Positions 10,847 through 18,198 of a stretch of 18,198 nucleotides of DNA are shown in pieces. The notes under the pieces were generated by a model. It was not told where the DNA came from and did no database searches. It was given only the letters and a program-made list of their open reading frames with translations. Position 1 is the stretch's first letter. Each line of letters opens with the position of its first letter. This stretch comes from a virus (lineage: Duplodnaviria; Heunggongvirae; Uroviricota; Caudoviricetes), in the IMG/VR virus record IMGVR_UViG_2534681697_000016, positions 1 through 18,198 of that record; one strand, given 5' to 3'. The position numbers and the translations under genes are program-made.

Positions 10847-11420
10847 AGTCACAGGTGGCAAACAGTTCCGGCAGAAGCTGAAACAGGTTGCCGCGAACCT
10901 TTCATTGGGTAAAAAACTCAAAGTGGGTTTTCTTGAGGGAGCAACTTACCCTGACGGTACGTCAGTGGCTTATATTGCCGCAGTTCAGGAGTTTGGTGGA
11001 AGAGCGGTCATACCCGCCCGTGAGCAGACGCTCCACTTTCGCTATAACGAAAAAACGGGAGAAACCGGGCACCGCTTTGTCAAAGCCGGTAAAGGGAATT
11101 TTGTTCAGGATGTGGTTATTCCTGAGCACACGGTCACCATTCCCCCCCGTCCGTTCTTCCGTAAGATGATCGAACATAAAAGTCCCGAATGGGGCGAAAA
11201 AATGGCGACCTTATTACGGGCGAATGATTTTGATACTGCGACCGCTCTGGTGTGTATGGGAGAACATATCAAAGGGCAGTTGCAGATGTCTGTTCGCGAC
11301 TGGGAAAGTCCGCCCAACGCTGCATCCACTGCCCGGCAAAAGGGTTTTAACAACCCGCTTATTGAAACCGGACATATGATGGACAGCGTTGATTATTCTG
11401 TAGACGGGGGCAAAAAATGA
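10836..11420 (+). CDS. phage neck/virion morphogenesis protein (HK97 gp10-like)
   Basis: The ORF track gives 10566-11420, but the upstream part overlaps the previous gene in another frame. ATG 10836 follows a GGGAGGGG ribosome-binding site and overlaps the upstream stop. Contains IPPRPFF, resembling the conserved PxRPF motif of HK97 gp10-like proteins. Confidence 0.45.
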
Positions 11421-11782
11421 ACTTTCACGGTATTGTTTCCGGCGCAGTACGTCGGGTAAATCCCTTTACAGACGCGCTGGTTTATCGTTCCCGCGGGAGT
11501 ACACAGCAGGCAGATTATTCCCGCGTACCTGAGTATGAAGATCCGGTTTCCGTCAGGGTGCAAAAGCAGGCTGTCACCCAGGCTGATTTACGTCATCTTG
11601 ATAATCTTAACCAGCAGGGAGTTTTCGCCACATTGTATACCGATGGTAACTGGTGCGGGCTTAACCGTGCCCGGCAACAGGGAGGCGATAAATTTGTTAT
11701 TGGCGATGAAACGTGGCTGGTGATTGAGGTACCGGAAATCTGGCCTGACTGGACGAGGGTTATTGTATGCCTTCAGGTGTGA
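11417..11782 (+). CDS. hypothetical phage head-tail joining protein (121 aa)
   Basis: ORF track 11417-11782; ATG overlaps the upstream stop (ATGA). Confidence 0.45.
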   Translation: MNFHGIVSGAVRRVNPFTDALVYRSRGSTQQADYSRVPEYEDPVSVRVQKQAVTQADLRHLDNLNQQGVFATLYTDGNWCGLNRARQQGGDKFVIGDETWLVIEVPEIWPDWTRVIVCLQV

Positions 11783-12312
11783 CCCTCTCCGTTACGGAAA
11801 GCGCTCTTTATCAGGCCCTCGGTGATTATCTCCGGGGGCTTTTTTCTGATGCCGGGATTGAACGAACGCAGCAGAACCAGGTCCCGATGCCTCAGGGGAA
11901 TTTCATCACCATGACGGGCATTGATGTTACCGGATTATCCACTGCGGTAGTGGCATATTCTGCGCCAGCGCAGGCTGGTGAGGGCTCTCAGCATATCACC
12001 CGTACCACAAAATGGCGTTGCCAGCTTGATTTCTACGGCCCTCACGCGGCAGATAACGCGCAGGTGCTGGCAACGCTTTTCCGGTCTGAATTTTCCGTAC
12101 GGCTTTTCCGGCAGGGCGGTGGGCTGATTTCCCCGCTGTATTGCTCAGAGCCCTTTAACACCACATTCCCCAACGGTCAGCAACAGTATGAACCGCGCTG
12201 GACGCTTGATATTCAGATGCAGATTAACCCTGTGGTCACAACTTCCCTGATGTTTTTTGACAACGTGATCACCCGGACAACGGAGGCTGATAATGCCAAT
12301 TCCACTCAGTAA
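11767..12312 (+). CDS. hypothetical phage tail completion/terminator-like protein (181 aa)
   Basis: ORF track 11767-12312, in the operon just before the sheath gene. Confidence 0.45.
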
Positions 12313-13777
12313 AGATGTACAGATAAATCCCGGTGTGCTGGCTGTGGCGGGTAATGCCGTTGATCTTAACGGCCTGCTGTTGACCAGTAATCCGTTACTT
12401 CCGGTCGGCACTGTGGTTCCGTTTTCCTCTCCGGATGATGTGGCCGCGTATTTTGGTGCATTATCCGATGAGTACGCACGCGCTCAGCTTTATTTCCAGG
12501 GCTTCAAAAATGCCACCAGGACGCCGGGGCAATTGTTGTTTTCCCGTTTCAGTCCTGCCCCATCGGCGGCCTGGTTACGTAGCGGTTCGTTTAAGGGCGC
12601 GACTGTTGAACAGCTACAAAAACTTTCCGGCACGCTGATGCTGAGTATTAACGGGAAAAGCGTCAGCATTGAAGTGAATTTTAACGGTGTCGCCAGCTTC
12701 GCCGCTGCTGCAACGGCACTACAGACAGCGCTGACCGCAGCAGTGGCTACAGTGGTATTCGATACCACACAGAATGCTTTTGTCATTACTGTCGCCGGTG
12801 CGAAACCCGGGAGTACCACGATAACGTTCGGCAGTGGATCGGCAGCAGAACTCCTGAAGATGACCAGTAACACCGGTGCGGTGATATCCCGGGGCGCGCC
12901 TGTATCTGATGTCCCTGACACAATGGCAGCCATTAAGGCCGCTTCCCAGCAATGGGCGGGTTTTTCCACGGTATCTGAGGTCACTGACGAGCAACACCTG
13001 GCGTTTTCTGCATGGGCAAACGGGCAGGGCAAGCGTTACTTTTATGTGGCATGGACAACCAGCGGCAACGCCAGAGTAAAAGGCAGTACTAAACACATCG
13101 CTTACCAGATAATTGCTGTCAATAACTACAGCTCTGTTGTACCTGTTTTCGCGACTGATGGTAACCGGGCTGCAGCGGTACTGGGGTATGCAGCGTGCCT
13201 TGATTTTGTCCGACCAGAGGGGCGTGTATCATTCAAGTTCCGCGAGTATGAGGGGCTGGCCGCTGATGTTACCAGTGGCAGCGATTATGATGCGCTGATC
13301 GCCGCAGGTTACAATTTCTACGGAAAATATGCGGAAAACAGTGTGGTGGAAGATTACTGGGCGGATGGCACTATTACCGGTGATTTTAAATGGCTGGACA
13401 GTTTCTGCGGGCAAATCTGGCTGAATGCCAGTTTGCAGGGGGCGGTGATCGCGTTATTCAAGTCAAACCAGACGATCCCCTACAACAATGAAGGGCGGGC
13501 GCTGGTTGCAGCGTCAATGAGTGACGTTATCCAGCAGTACAAACGCTGGGGAGGGATCCGTGAAGGGGTGACACTGACGGAGGCGCAGAAGAAACAGATT
13601 AACAATGTTGTGGGGGCAGATGTTTCTTCAACGTTGTTTGCCACCGGCTATTACCTGTATATCGGCGATATGCTTCCCTCTTTGCGGGCAACCCGTAGCA
13701 GTCCGTCCTGTACGCTCTGGTACTGTGACGGCGGTAGTATCCAGAAACTTGTTATTGCATCCACGGAGGTCCAGTAA
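12293..13777 (+). CDS. phage contractile-tail sheath protein (DUF3383-like)
   Basis: 494-aa ORF with ATG 12293 and a GGAGG ribosome-binding site, directly followed by a ~150-aa tube-sized gene and a chaperone/tape-measure pair, the canonical myovirus order. Confidence 0.6.
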
Positions 13778-14224
13778 ATGTCGGGTAACAACAACACCAT
13801 CACTGCGGCGGATGCCATTATCACGCTGACAGTGAATAATCTGTATCCCTCCGGCGTACGACTTCAGGGATTTGCAACAGATAACGTTTATGGCACCGAT
13901 CCACTGGTACTGGCGGAAACTGCCCGCGGTATTGACGGTAAACTGTCCGCGGGATTTGTGTACAGCAACATTATCCAGACGTTTCATATCATGCCGGATT
14001 CCCCCAGCCGGGATATTTTTGATACCTGGTCAACCACATCCCGGGCCAGTCGGGCTGTATTCCGTTGTAACGCTGTCGTCCTGCTTCCGGCGATTGGCCG
14101 TAAATATACCTGCGTGAATGGCGTACTCAAACAATGGAAAGCGCTGCCTGATGCAGCTCGTACGTTGCAGCCAGGGCAGGCGGTTATTGAGTGGGAAACC
14201 ATTACTCCGGAGGTTTTTAACTGA
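13778..14224 (+). CDS. phage tail tube protein
   Basis: 148-aa ORF with ATG 13778 and a GGAGG ribosome-binding site, between the sheath and the tail assembly chaperone. Confidence 0.5.
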   Translation: MSGNNNTITAADAIITLTVNNLYPSGVRLQGFATDNVYGTDPLVLAETARGIDGKLSAGFVYSNIIQTFHIMPDSPSRDIFDTWSTTSRASRAVFRCNAVVLLPAIGRKYTCVNGVLKQWKALPDAARTLQPGQAVIEWETITPEVFN

Positions 14225-14628
14225 TGGCCCGTAAAGAGAAATTTATCACTATTGAAGGTCAGGGACGGGATAAGGGCAAGGTATTTCATCTTACCGAAAT
14301 GTCTGCCTTACAGGCGGAATGGTGGGCGATGCGTGCCATTATGGCAATGGGGCGTGGTGGCGTGGAGTTACCGGATGATGTTCGTAGTCTGGGGATGGCT
14401 GCGCTTGCCCTTGAAGGGCTGAAAGCATTATCGAAAATTCCGCCTGATGAGGCGCGTCCGTTGATGGATGAAATGATGGACTGTGTGCAGTTTGTTCCCG
14501 ATCCGAAAAAACGCAGCATCCGGAGACCGCTTGTTGAAGAGGATATTGAAGAAATCATTACCCGTCTTAATCTGCGTGCGGAGGTCTTTAAGCTGCATGT
14601 GGATTTTTTCGCTACCGTCGTCAGCTAG
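14224..14628 (+). CDS. tail assembly chaperone (lambda gpG analogue)
   Basis: 134-aa ORF immediately upstream of the tape measure gene, with a T TTT TTC slippery heptamer 18 nt before its stop. Confidence 0.6.
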   Translation: MARKEKFITIEGQGRDKGKVFHLTEMSALQAEWWAMRAIMAMGRGGVELPDDVRSLGMAALALEGLKALSKIPPDEARPLMDEMMDCVQFVPDPKKRSIRRPLVEEDIEEIITRLNLRAEVFKLHVDFFATVVS

Positions 14629-14852
14629 ATATCCCCCCGCGTTATCTCGACCCCGACAGACCGTTCGGGGTGGTGGATTACGTTAATGTTCCCCGTACCA
14701 TTGCGACCGTTATCTCCTCCGGTAAGGCTTCAAAAGCTGAACTGGATTCTGTCCTTGGTGTGCAGGACTTATGGGATCTGCTGGAAATAATTCATGTGGA
14801 TGCCCATAACGAACAGGTGATACAGGAGAACAGAAATGGCGCAGGTACTTGA
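14224..14852 (+). CDS. tail assembly chaperone frameshift-extended product (gpGT analogue) via programmed -1 frameshift at 14604-14610
   Basis: The -1 frame is open from 14592 to 14852 (track ORF 14670-14852 from GTG). The slippery sequence T TTT TTC at 14604-14610 lies in the overlap, and the extension ends 14 bp after the tape measure ATG. Confidence 0.5.
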
Positions 14853-15376
14853 TGAGCTTGTTCTGTCCCTCGGGATTGATGACAGGGACTTTACTGCCGG
14901 GGAACAGGCAGTACATGCTGCCCTTAACCGGCTCACGACGGTGATGGAAGGTGTCGCTGACACATTCAGTCAGGGACAGAAGAAAACCAGTGAATCACTG
15001 GAAAAAACCGGAAAAGATGCTGATAAAACGGCCCGTCGAATGGAAGATGCCGGGAAACGGGCGTCCCGTTTTTTTTCAGGGATCCGTAGCGAGATTCTGG
15101 CTCTTGCGGGTGTCAGTCTGACGCTGGGGGGGCTGAAGAACCTGGTAACAGGTTTTGCCCGTGATCTGAACCGTCTGTCCGTGGAATCTGATGCTTTTGG
15201 CATGAAGGCCAGAAATCTGGACGGATGGTTACGGGCTGCGCGGGCAAATAATGTTGATGAAGGGGAAATGTCTGGGGCATTTTCCCGGCTTGCAAATGCA
15301 AAAGCGGCCTTCAGAGCCGGAAGGTCCTTTGATCCTGTGTTACAGGATTTGTTTCAGGTTGCAGCCAGGGCGGGCA
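14836..15376 (+). pseudogene. tail tape measure protein, N-terminal ~180 codons only, truncated by the IS5-family element
   Basis: ATG 14836 directly after the chaperone pair. The ORF track frame (14836-15402) runs into the IS inverted repeat at 15377 and terminates there. 180 aa is far shorter than any tape measure protein. Confidence 0.55.
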
Positions 15377-16298
15377 TTAGGCTGTGTCCCTTAATCATCT
15401 GAGCTATAGTAACTGTCTGTTTACACAACATATTGAACTATGGCTCGCTACGACCTTCCCGATGAGGCATGGACCATCATCAAGCCCCTGTTACCTCCTG
15501 AACCCGCCACACCACGGGCCGGACGCCCATGGGCTGAGCACCGTAAAATCATCAATGGCATGTTCTGGGTGTTATGTTCCGGTGCACCATGGCGCGATTT
15601 ACCCGAACGATATGGGTCATGGAAAACTGTTTATAACCGCTTTAACCGATGGTCAAAGTCAGGCGTGATTAATATTATTTTCAACAGGTTGCTTTCGCTA
15701 CTTGATGCAAACGGCTTTATTGACTGGTCTGCCACCGCGCTGGATGGCAGTAATATCCGGGCGCTGAAATGTGCCGCCGGTGCTCAAAAAAACATCCCGA
15801 TATCGACGGAGATAATGGGCTGGGTCGCTCTCGCGGCGGTTTTGGCACCAAAATCCATCTGGCAACAGACGGAAGTGGCCTCCCGTTAAATATCGTGCTA
15901 AGCCCCGGACAAGCTCATGAAAGCCAGTTCGCGCAACGACTTCTGGACGGGATTGGCGTTCAGCGTCAGAACGGCAGCATGAAACGCCGTGGACATGCGG
16001 TACTGGCTGATAAAGCGTATTCAGGGCGCGCATTGCGCAACGAGCTGAAAAATAACGGTATAAAGGCAGTAATCCCCCGAAAGTCAAATGAGAAAATGGC
16101 ATCGGATGGACGTGCACAGCTTGATCGTGATGCGTACCGCAATCGTAATGTCGTTGAACGGTGCTTTGGGCGGCTGAAAGAATATCGCCGCATCGCCACG
16201 CGTTACGACAAAACGGCGAGAAATTACCTGGCGATGGTGAAACTGGGCTGCATCCGACTCTTTTATCAACGCTTACGTAATTAAGGGACACAGCCTAA
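15377..16298 (+). mobile_element. IS5-family insertion sequence (IS427/IS1031-group-like), ~920 bp
   Basis: Perfect 19-bp terminal inverted repeats: TTAGGCTGTGTCCCTTAAT at 15377-15395 and its reverse complement at 16280-16298. Encodes a two-frame transposase with an A7 slippery run. Boundaries are +/- 3 bp. Confidence 0.75.
15440..16284 (+). CDS. IS5-family DDE transposase, produced from two frames by a -1 frameshift at the A7 run 15786-15792
   Basis: Track ORFs 15440-15889 and 15769-16284 (-1 frame). The joined product reads ...LDGSNIRALKCAAGAQKK/HPDIDGDNGLGRSRGGFGTKIHLATDGSGLPLNIVLSPGQAHESQ...DKAYSG...NVVERCFGRLKEYRRIATRYDK, with the GRSRGG-TKIH and YDK hallmarks of IS5-family transposases. 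Confidence 0.8.
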
Positions 16299-16378
16299 AA
16301 CTCCGTGCCCATATAACCCAAGTCGGAGGCATGCCTTCCTCTGGTTCGTTCCATCTAAAATGTCTATACATAACATGG

Positions 16379-16779
16379 TTATTCAATTATTTTTTCTTTG
16401 AATATATTCTCAGTCCAGCTGTGTTTATACCTGATGAAAATTTGACACTCACCAATATTATCAATGTCTCCAGAATTTGTATTTGGAATTTGTCCAACTG
16501 CAACTATAGTTGATTCAAAATATTCAACATTGACATTATCTGTAATTATTGAAATTATATAATCATCTGGAATAGAGCCATTAGGAGTTATATTGAAGAA
16601 ACTAACATCTGAAAATACCAAATAACCATCTTCTAAGTCTTCATTATCATAAAAATTCCATTCTGTTGTACCATAGGCTATCCTTGAGATTAAATTAACC
16701 TGAATTCTAATTTGTTTACTCCATAAATCAAATTCAATTTTTTTATTGCTCGATCACCAAGATATATTCTATCAAACAT
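16379..16779 (-). pseudogene. putative Rhs-associated immunity protein gene, split by a frameshift in an A7 run
   Basis: Minus-strand ATG at 16779-16777 lies 14 nt after the Rhs stop, behind a GGGGGG ribosome-binding site. That frame stops after 29 codons (MFDRIYLGDRAIKKLNLIYGVNKLEFRLI). The -1 frame is open from before the A7 run (plus-strand T7 at 16738-16744) to 16379 and contains the track ORF 16379-16621. AT-rich like the adjacent toxin tip. Confidence 0.4.
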
Positions 16780-16793
16780 ATTACCCCCCTATT

Positions 16794-18198
16794 CTAAAAA
16801 TACTCAGGCATTCCGCACATTATATCAGCCTCATCTTGATTGCTTCCCGTTGACATTTCAACATACATAGCACAATAACATTGTCCAAACGTTCCCTCTC
16901 TACATGATCTAAGTGTAAACATATGTAAAACAGAACTAAAAAAGCTTAGTGTACCGAGTGATCTAATACCGATATGTGCGGCACTACTATTCCATGGTAC
17001 AACGCGACCATTAACATCAAGGGATGGACCTTGGCCTTTCATACCGCTACCTGTTCCTGGTAAATGTGCATGTGGTGTTGAATTGTTTGCATGCCCTATT
17101 GGATTAAGCCTATAATCATTTGAATTATTCTGATAAAGAGTGTGAGTATCTGCACTTCCTGGATTACTGGGGGGATACGGGATTGTTCTGCCACCTACCG
17201 GTTCAACCATAATATTGCCTTTAGAATCACCTATAAACCTACCAACAGGTTGTTGAGTTATAGGATCAATAGTACAGGATTGACTTACAGGTTTTTGTCT
17301 GGGAGAAGGTAATGATAATAGATCTAATCCCAAAGGTTCTATATACTGAACCGGATTCAACGGATACTGATAAAAATTCCATCCCCCCTTCAGTCCAATC
17401 GGATCCTGAGTGATATATCGCCCCTGCAGCGGGTCATAATAGCGGTGGCGGTTGTAATACAGGCCGGACTCCTCATCATACTGCTGCCCCGGCAGGCGGA
17501 TAAGCTGCTGCAGCTGATGCGGGTTCTCTTCATTCAGCAGGTTGCCCCACTCATCGTATTCTGCGCACCATTCTGTTGCCCCTTCCGTGCTGATAAGCAC
17601 CAGCGGCAGGCCGCGATGGTCGCAGTGGTACAGGTGGATTTTTCGCGCCGGCGTGTACACCGGGTCCATCTGGTTTTGCATCTGCTCTACCGTCAGGCCG
17701 CACGATGCCAGCCAGCGGCGGCTTTCCTCACTCACCCGGTCAGCCAGGATTTCACTTTCCAGCCGGTCGAGCATCTGCACCAGCACCGGCGGGAACACCA
17801 CATCACCACCGTCTTCGCCGCCGGACTGCTGAAGGGCATCCGCCAGGCTGCGGCGCTGCATTTTCGCCTGCTCACCGGTGGCGGTTTCAACTCTGATGAG
17901 TGGCGTGAAGCTCCCCGGCTGATAAATCGTCTGGATGCGGGTTCTGTCGTTCTGTATCGTGGTCAGGCGGTCGCCGTCCCAGCCGTACCAGGTCACTTCC
18001 GGTTTCCGTGACAGCGACATCCAGCCCGTCAGGTCCCGTTCACGTCGCCATACCCGTTTTGCCACCCTGCGGCCCAGCGGGTCGTAAAGATAGCGGCTTT
18101 CGACCAGCGGCTCTGCATATTGTGTCCGCGTGTAGTGCACCAGCCGGTGCTGACTGTCGTAATGGTACCGGTGGGTGCGCTCATCATCCGTGCGGATA
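16794..18198 (-). CDS. Rhs-family protein, C-terminal part: 3' end of the YD-repeat core plus a ~176-aa C-terminal polymorphic toxin tip; the 5' end lies beyond the window
   Basis: The minus-strand frame is open to the window edge; the track ORF 16794-18140 begins at an internal GTG. It contains YD repeats ([36 protein letters not shown]) and the core-terminal hallmark [40 protein letters not shown]. An AT-rich variable tip follows, ending ...CGMPEYF-stop at 16794. Confidence 0.85.

Follow-up and report, generated by a model that had tools for sequence, protein, structure and literature searches.

An AT-rich Rhs toxin tip from an E. coli-like rhsA locus is a distant relative of the PT7 nuclease toxin, with DUF6258 as its most likely immunity partner

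What kind of protein is encoded by an Rhs tip that resembles no curated family? The stretch of DNA analyzed here (IMG/VR virus record IMGVR_UViG_2534681697_000016, positions 1 to 18,198; hereafter the window, 18,198 nucleotides in all) ends in part of an rhs gene whose last 176 codons raise this question. The original prediction, made from the letters of the window, had called these codons an AT-rich, exchangeable Rhs C-terminal toxin tip of uncharacterized type, lying behind a conserved DPIGL...EPLGL motif. Taken alone, the tip (16794-17324, minus strand; 176 codons and a TAG stop at 16794-16796) gives zero matches to Pfam, NCBIfam and PADLOC models, even at E ≤ 1, and to that extent the label of an uncharacterized type stands. 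It fails in that the tip is not of an unknown type: it is a longer, distant relative of PT7 (polymorphic toxin 7), a characterized toxin that cuts DNA in a metal-dependent manner, and by analogy the tip would itself be a nuclease.

The limits of the tip are clear. Between 16794 and 18197 the minus strand is a single reading frame, already open at the window end, with 467 visible codons; the first 291 residues are the end of the Rhs core and the next 176 the tip. The core portion (17325-18198, minus strand), which comprises the cocoon end and the aspartyl autoprotease region, matches NCBIfam RHS_core over model positions 971-1261 of 1261 (E = 1.6e-184), as well as TIGR03696 Rhs_assc_core (NCBIfam) and Pfam RHS, and is 98-99% identical to E. 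coli rhsA-locus genes. It closes with a 27-residue demarcation and autocleavage motif (17325-17405, minus strand), in which the second catalytic Asp is replaced by Glu, and the tip starts directly behind this motif, which is of the PxxxxDPxG[LWF] type; we number the tip from the D of DLLSLP, its first residue. GC content drops across the junction from 0.56-0.64 (17400-18100) to 0.34-0.45 (16700-17400). The frame, all 176 residues and the fall in GC are thus exactly as first described.

The full tip (531-537 nt) occurs, with 96.6-99.6% identity, in 57 of the 5426 complete E. coli genomes, and proteins 50-70% identical to it are encoded by unrelated bacteria and in metagenomes; it is a real part of a gene and not a chance open reading frame (ORF). 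An initial protein search returned 13 relatives (54-70% identity) that have only tip residues ~18-122 in common, and a profile search of 1.84 billion representatives found at least 214 clusters (50% identity), 110 of them at E ≤ 1e-30. The shared domain is thus found well outside the window, nearly always at the very C-terminus of Rhs, TcB/TcC-like and PT-HINT proteins. The domain, of ~104 residues, ends no more than 19 residues from the protein C-terminus in 120 of 129 full-length matches. Its carriers include Rhs/YD proteins with DUF6531, DUF6443 or ChW parts (a full-length E. coli relative has an N-terminal DUF6531 and RHS repeats), Tc-like SpvB-TcdB-Rhs proteins of 2200-2900 residues, and PT-HINT proteins; the same domain is therefore found C-terminal to different trafficking and pre-toxin parts, as in polymorphic cassettes. 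In one relative of 330 residues (P0137), the PT7-like domain lies at 93-196 and is followed by 134 residues with a DGRHR motif reminiscent of ParB-type nucleases; this protein would be a toxin-domain fusion.

PT7(Bc), from B. cereus BAG3X2-1 (EJQ03417.1, 78 residues), was identified in a systematic screen that looked for new toxin domains at protein C-termini, and is found with PIM7 in PDB entry 8OWU (Nachmias et al., 10.1101/2021.10.19.465003, later Nat Microbiol 2024). Its family is associated with proteins of the LXG/type VII secretion system (T7SS) kind; PT7 is toxic to E. coli and yeast, the nucleoid shrinks or vanishes upon its expression, and it is a non-specific endo-DNase whose activity is abolished by ethylenediaminetetraacetic acid (10.1101/2021.10.19.465003). 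Density in its pocket was fitted as Mg2+, PIM7 covers this pocket, the fold was reported to be new, and the pocket residues H47, H49 and H73 are named in supplementary Fig. S11H; the substitutions D37A and H47A remove toxicity in vivo and leave the non-specific endo-DNase activity in place (10.1101/2021.10.19.465003). According to a 2026 preprint, wild-type PT7 degrades both DNA and ribosomal RNA (rRNA) (10.64898/2026.07.31.742022). E. coli is missing from Table S6 of the earlier study, which covers pathogens encoding PT7 (10.1101/2021.10.19.465003), and a literature search for the PDB code 8OWU returned nothing.

To compare the tip with PT7, sequences resembling PT7(Bc) were recovered from the fragment in a PDB alignment and then aligned as a family profile. 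Alignment of the two family profiles by hhalign gave a probability of 92.6% (E = 4.4e-7) over 60 columns, and 8owu_B was the top match in an hmmsearch of the PDB (E = 0.042). In reciprocal hidden Markov model (HMM) searches, nearly every member of each family scored 10-25 bits, too low to pass a database-wide threshold. Together, these three comparisons place the tip in remote, profile-level homology with PT7, and the tip core has the fold of PDB 8OWU, which was described as a new topology.

The hhalign alignment pairs PT7 H24 with tip H61, N29 with N66, R35 with R72, D37 with N74, H47 with H85, H49 with H87, and H73 with H117. The pocket histidines of PT7 are thus matched in the tip by H85, H87 and H117, which are conserved in 100%, 92% and 98% of the family, respectively, and both PT7 and the tip domain end in ...S-x-x-A-H-[IW]-P. 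The motif H85-A-H87 (17064-17072, minus strand), seen in the alignments and in the pairing with PT7 H47 and H49, belongs to the 11-residue His-containing stretch that the original prediction had singled out; it is conserved and probably catalytic. Strong conservation across the family alignment also covers D20, G28, R29, D33, G36, N37, E41, P42, G44, G45, T47, D59, T60, H61, T62, Y64, N66, S68, R72, N74, H78, P84, the H-x-H-x-H motif (H85 and H87 in the window), G90, G92, G97, Q98, G99, S101, D103, G106, V109, S113, A116, H117 and W118. In the most divergent members (the last rows of the alignment), D-T-H-T becomes x-E-T/S-x and the third His of HxHxH becomes F or Y. Their retention of the first two His and of A-H-W indicates which residues are presumably indispensable.

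The same histidines could be read in another way, with the H...N...H pattern in PHAH...NG...AH marking an HNH, or beta-beta-alpha-Me, nuclease. The His/Asn/His spacing in the C-terminal half is the only feature that speaks for this assignment, which we consider very improbable; neither a profile match to HNH/beta-beta-alpha-Me enzymes (AHH, GHH, LHH, WHH and similar) nor their metal-finger fold was found in the tip.

An AlphaFold model of the tip adds to this picture. With an alignment of 14 sequences, the core had a predicted local distance difference test score (pLDDT) below 50; this model was superseded by one from a 93-sequence alignment, with a mean pLDDT of 88.6 and values above 90 over most of the core. 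In this model the core has six beta strands and the C-terminal tail four helices, the latter at pLDDT ~83-89. A structure search of a viral structure library returned nothing. The tip divides into a linker without conservation in the family alignments (residues 1-17; 17274-17324, minus strand), the beta-rich PT7-like toxin core domain (residues 18-122; 16959-17273, minus strand), and a subfamily-specific tail that is predicted to be helical and has four Cys (residues 123-176; 16797-16958, minus strand).

The original prediction had proposed that the Cys near the C-terminus form a metal-dependent active site. The tail is restricted to a subfamily composed of the E. coli and Rahnella proteins and a few metagenome proteins; it is shared with P0001, P0002, P0033 and P0115, and more loosely with P0004 and P0038, and a search with the tail alone recovered only fragments of the same E. 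coli protein. Within the subfamily all four Cys are conserved, in the pattern SC-x8-CxC-x~21-C, as would suit a catalytic role, and the otherwise conserved W118 is I or F. However, 120 of the 129 full-length members (~93%) end in ...AHWPI and lack the tail, and the core has no conserved Cys in the family alignment. Because most members lack the tail, it cannot, judging from the alignment, be the active site of the family, and we give the Cys proposal almost no credence.

We then considered the neighboring gene. The four loci checked, those of E. coli, Rahnella and Pseudomarimonas and one on a metagenome contig, each have a DUF6258 gene directly downstream of the toxin, and it is the next gene both in the Rahnella locus, which is an orphan tip, and in the metagenome contig, which carries a tail-less toxin. 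The intact E. coli gene encodes 133 residues, is annotated as a DUF6258 family protein and matches Pfam DUF6258 (PF19772) with 91.2 bits (E = 7.6e-26; gathering cut-off 25). The ORF in the window (16379-16779, minus strand) is, by alignment with its relatives, the same gene, altered by a few substitutions and the loss of 1 base, the Pfam score being that of the orthologue. Immediately downstream of the toxin there is thus a small candidate immunity gene, present in frameshifted form in the window, which agrees with the immunity-like ORF first proposed at this position. A full-text literature search found no paper mentioning DUF6258, and a phmmer search of the PDB with the E. coli DUF6258 protein found no match.

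Because its position right after the toxin domain is constant in four unrelated loci, DUF6258 is a strong candidate for the cognate immunity family. The C-terminal placement of the domain, its diverse carriers and its constant DUF6258 neighbor therefore argue that the tip is a polymorphic-toxin cassette, as had been supposed; at the level of sequence, the domain together with DUF6258 is the signature of such a cassette with a dedicated immunity family. Most likely, the tip is a nuclease toxin and DUF6258 its immunity protein.

Our best explanation for these observations, which we hold with a probability of roughly 0.68, is that the tip is a two-part Rhs cargo whose core is a metal-dependent nuclease domain distantly homologous to PT7, with a DUF6258 protein providing immunity. 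By analogy with Rhs effectors and PT7, the tip would be housed inside the Rhs cocoon, freed by the Rhs aspartyl autoprotease cutting after ...PLGL, and delivered into a neighboring cell with the spike of the Rhs/type VI secretion system (T6SS). In the target cell it would degrade DNA, and possibly rRNA, using a divalent metal in a histidine pocket made up of H85, H87 and H117 with support from H61, N74 and H78. The producer cell would be protected by the product of the adjoining downstream gene, the DUF6258 protein, binding the toxin and blocking this pocket. The last 54 residues would form a helical four-Cys appendage of one subfamily, outside the catalytic center.

Several observations weigh against this explanation, or against too close an equation with PT7. 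When the tip is compared with a PT7(Bc)-like protein by BLASTP, the alignment extends over only 17 residues (~22% of PT7), with which the faint reciprocal HMM scores are in keeping; the PT7 authors required a DIAMOND E ≤ 0.001 and coverage of at least 80% of PT7 before counting a protein as a homologue, and the tip, gauged by pairwise BLASTP, falls short of this. The position of PT7 Asp37, needed for toxicity of PT7 in vivo, is Asn in 85% of the family and Asp in 11%. PT7 has 78 residues and the tip core ~105; the family has ~40 extra N-terminal residues that form extra strands, 6 residues inserted behind the His motif, and additional conserved His and Asp positions, none of which PT7 shares. 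The window allele also lacks one His of the HxHxH triad, at a position that is 98% conserved in the family. The immunity partners differ as well, with PIM7 serving PT7 and DUF6258 the tip family, and no relation between them is detectable: PIM7-like proteins (L006:3253-3603 and L009:3295-3669) gave no Pfam DUF6258 match at E ≤ 10, and hhalign of DUF6258 with PIM7 gave a probability of 0.2%. Finally, the clustering of the pocket histidines is deduced from the alignment to PT7, and the published activity is that of PT7; nuclease activity of the tip, immunity by occlusion and delivery by the T6SS are proposed by analogy.

There are further differences between the two families. Where the tip family has HxHxH, PT7 has YxHxH; the carriers of PT7 are LXG/T7SS proteins, whereas those of the tip family are Rhs, TcB/TcC-like and PT-HINT proteins; and PT7 is without the Cys-rich tail of the tip subfamily. 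We treat the tip family as a sister family that shares the fold and pocket of PT7, and not as a member of PT7 as published.

Some of these differences would also be expected if the tip were a PT7-fold metalloenzyme with another substrate, such as a specific RNA, a nucleotide or a component of the cell envelope, instead of bulk DNA. The replacement of Asp37 by Asn, the extra invariant residues D20, D33, E41 and H78, the extra His in HxHxH, the added N-terminal beta subdomain and the lack of kinship between the immunity families all point in this direction; moreover, PT7 also cuts rRNA, so this fold is not tied to one set range of substrates. Against a change of substrate, the three pocket histidines and the motifs R-x-[DN]-P, LD-x-x-G-N-x-V and S-x-x-A-H are conserved in both families, and the simplest expectation is therefore the same phosphodiester hydrolysis. 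We regard another substrate as improbable and retain the PT7-like nuclease as the preferred reading. More broadly, it is a doubtful but conceivable idea that the clade is something more than a longer PT7. Because it joins the PT7 pocket with an N-terminal beta subdomain, HxHxH, the Asn, an unrelated immunity family and a four-Cys tail, a different substrate or a new accessory function could follow, for example a C-terminal Zn-binding or entry/targeting module, and the CACATG repeat at the His motif may be prone to slippage that repeatedly changes the number of His. A module C-terminal to the toxin is unusual for polymorphic toxins.

Whether the copy in the window still works is a separate matter, which concerns its state and not the identity of the domain. 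In the immunity gene, the homopolymer at 16738-16744 is 7 bases long, whereas each of the six aligned E. coli relatives has 8. Translation in the first frame therefore ends after 29 codons, and one added base restores the 133-residue protein. This 1-base contraction, unique to the window, may reflect true decay, slippage that can revert, or an error in sequencing. In the autocleavage motif, the codon at 17337-17339 (minus strand) is GAA (Glu), compared with GAC (Asp) in all six aligned E. coli relatives, and among family carriers the Asp of PxxxxDPxGL is D in 39 of 39 junction motifs and E in none. In P. protegens RhsA the corresponding residue is D1346, which is required for C-terminal autoproteolysis and toxicity (PMC8765631); it follows the other catalytic Asp at a distance of 22 residues, the same spacing as in the window Rhs. 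By this analogy, the change to Glu probably impairs release of the toxin from the Rhs cocoon.

The His motif is altered too. Its family consensus is P-H-x-H-x-H, and the window has PHAH in place of PHAHAH through deletion of one 6-bp CACATG unit; the lost His pairs in the hhalign alignment with PT7 Y45, which is not a pocket residue. The copy number of the tandem CACATG repeat (PHAH or PHAHAH) varies, at 17064-17072 and at loci L001, L002, L010 and L011. In some E. coli strains the conserved Met of GN-x-M-x-EP is missing through an unlinked 3-bp deletion. All four combinations of the CACATG and Met-codon indels are found in E. coli, a pattern that suggests repeated slippage or else recombination. 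At loci L010, L011 and L012 (from E. coli 13E0780, 2014C-3061 and 2013C-3264), the rhs gene is annotated as frameshifted and DUF6258 is intact, the opposite of the situation in the window; in L012, a C run within the tip has lost a single base.

Taken together, the immunity frameshift, the Asp-to-Glu change in the autoprotease motif and a rearrangement by an insertion sequence (IS; see below) suggest that the module in the window is probably decaying. A stronger form of this proposal is that the copy is a non-functional remnant whose toxin is unreleased or inactive, so that loss of immunity is tolerated. The deletion of an HA unit, an IS insertion and prophage junction that adjoin the locus, and the existence of frameshifted versions of the same rhs gene in other E. 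coli strains are further points in its favor. Conversely, all 467 visible codons of the toxin gene are open, a homopolymer frameshift may have the more benign origins given above, the effect of Asp to Glu on autoproteolysis is only presumed, and E. coli O121 strains combine the same PHAH allele with an intact immunity gene. We put the remnant at even odds; it is compatible with our best explanation for the tip.

The surroundings of the tip place it in a known chromosomal setting. From 16295 to 18198 the window is 98-99% identical to the rhsA locus, adjoining yibF, of E. coli O121, O55:H7 and others, in which the order is tip, intact DUF6258 gene, orphan rhs fragments and yibG. The module has the architecture of E. 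coli RhsA-type effectors, with the same Rhs cocoon core, PxxxxDPxGL motif, variable toxin, downstream immunity gene and location at rhsA by yibF; it differs in that the window copy alone has Glu at the motif Asp, and its tip domain is not among the characterized E. coli Rhs-CT toxins that we found named, namely the metallopeptidase CT1, REase-3 CT3 and Toxin_55 CT5 (Ma et al. 2017 as summarized in PMC6730261).

Similarity to E. coli rhsA loci ends at ~16295, ~85 bp past the immunity gene. Here a 924-bp IS fragment (15375-16298, no strand assigned) replaces the orphan rhs/yibG region and joins the locus to a prophage structural module. It contains a partial IS5/IS4-type DDE transposase ORF (15769-16284, plus strand) that matches Pfam DDE_Tnp_1 (E = 1e-21) and is 99.9% identical to an annotated IS5-family transposase. 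The junction of IS and immunity gene is found in no complete E. coli genome, and the arrangement suggests an IS-mediated rearrangement of the region downstream of the immunity gene. The prophage module (2006-15402, plus strand) encodes a large terminase, portal, head protease, major head protein, tail sheath, virion structural protein and tail assembly chaperone; an ORF for a tape-measure/lytic tail protein (14836-15402) stops after 188 residues at the IS, and an IS3-type transposase lies at the left side of the prophage (2006-3162).

About 1% of complete E. coli genomes, O121 and O55:H7 pathogens among them, carry this Rhs tip, for which our results provide a testable function; they also propose one for its family, which comprises at least 214 clusters and is covered by no curated model. 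The general view of how Rhs toxins act is unchanged. The PT7 fold was earlier described from LXG-associated toxins and short stand-alone homologues in Firmicutes and some Proteobacteria, and our analysis would broaden its distribution, across Gram-negative bacteria, to Rhs proteins of the T6SS type and to Tc-like and PT-HINT carriers. It also proposes a role for DUF6258 as an immunity protein for PT7-fold toxins, in which case one catalytic pocket would be paired with two unrelated immunity families.
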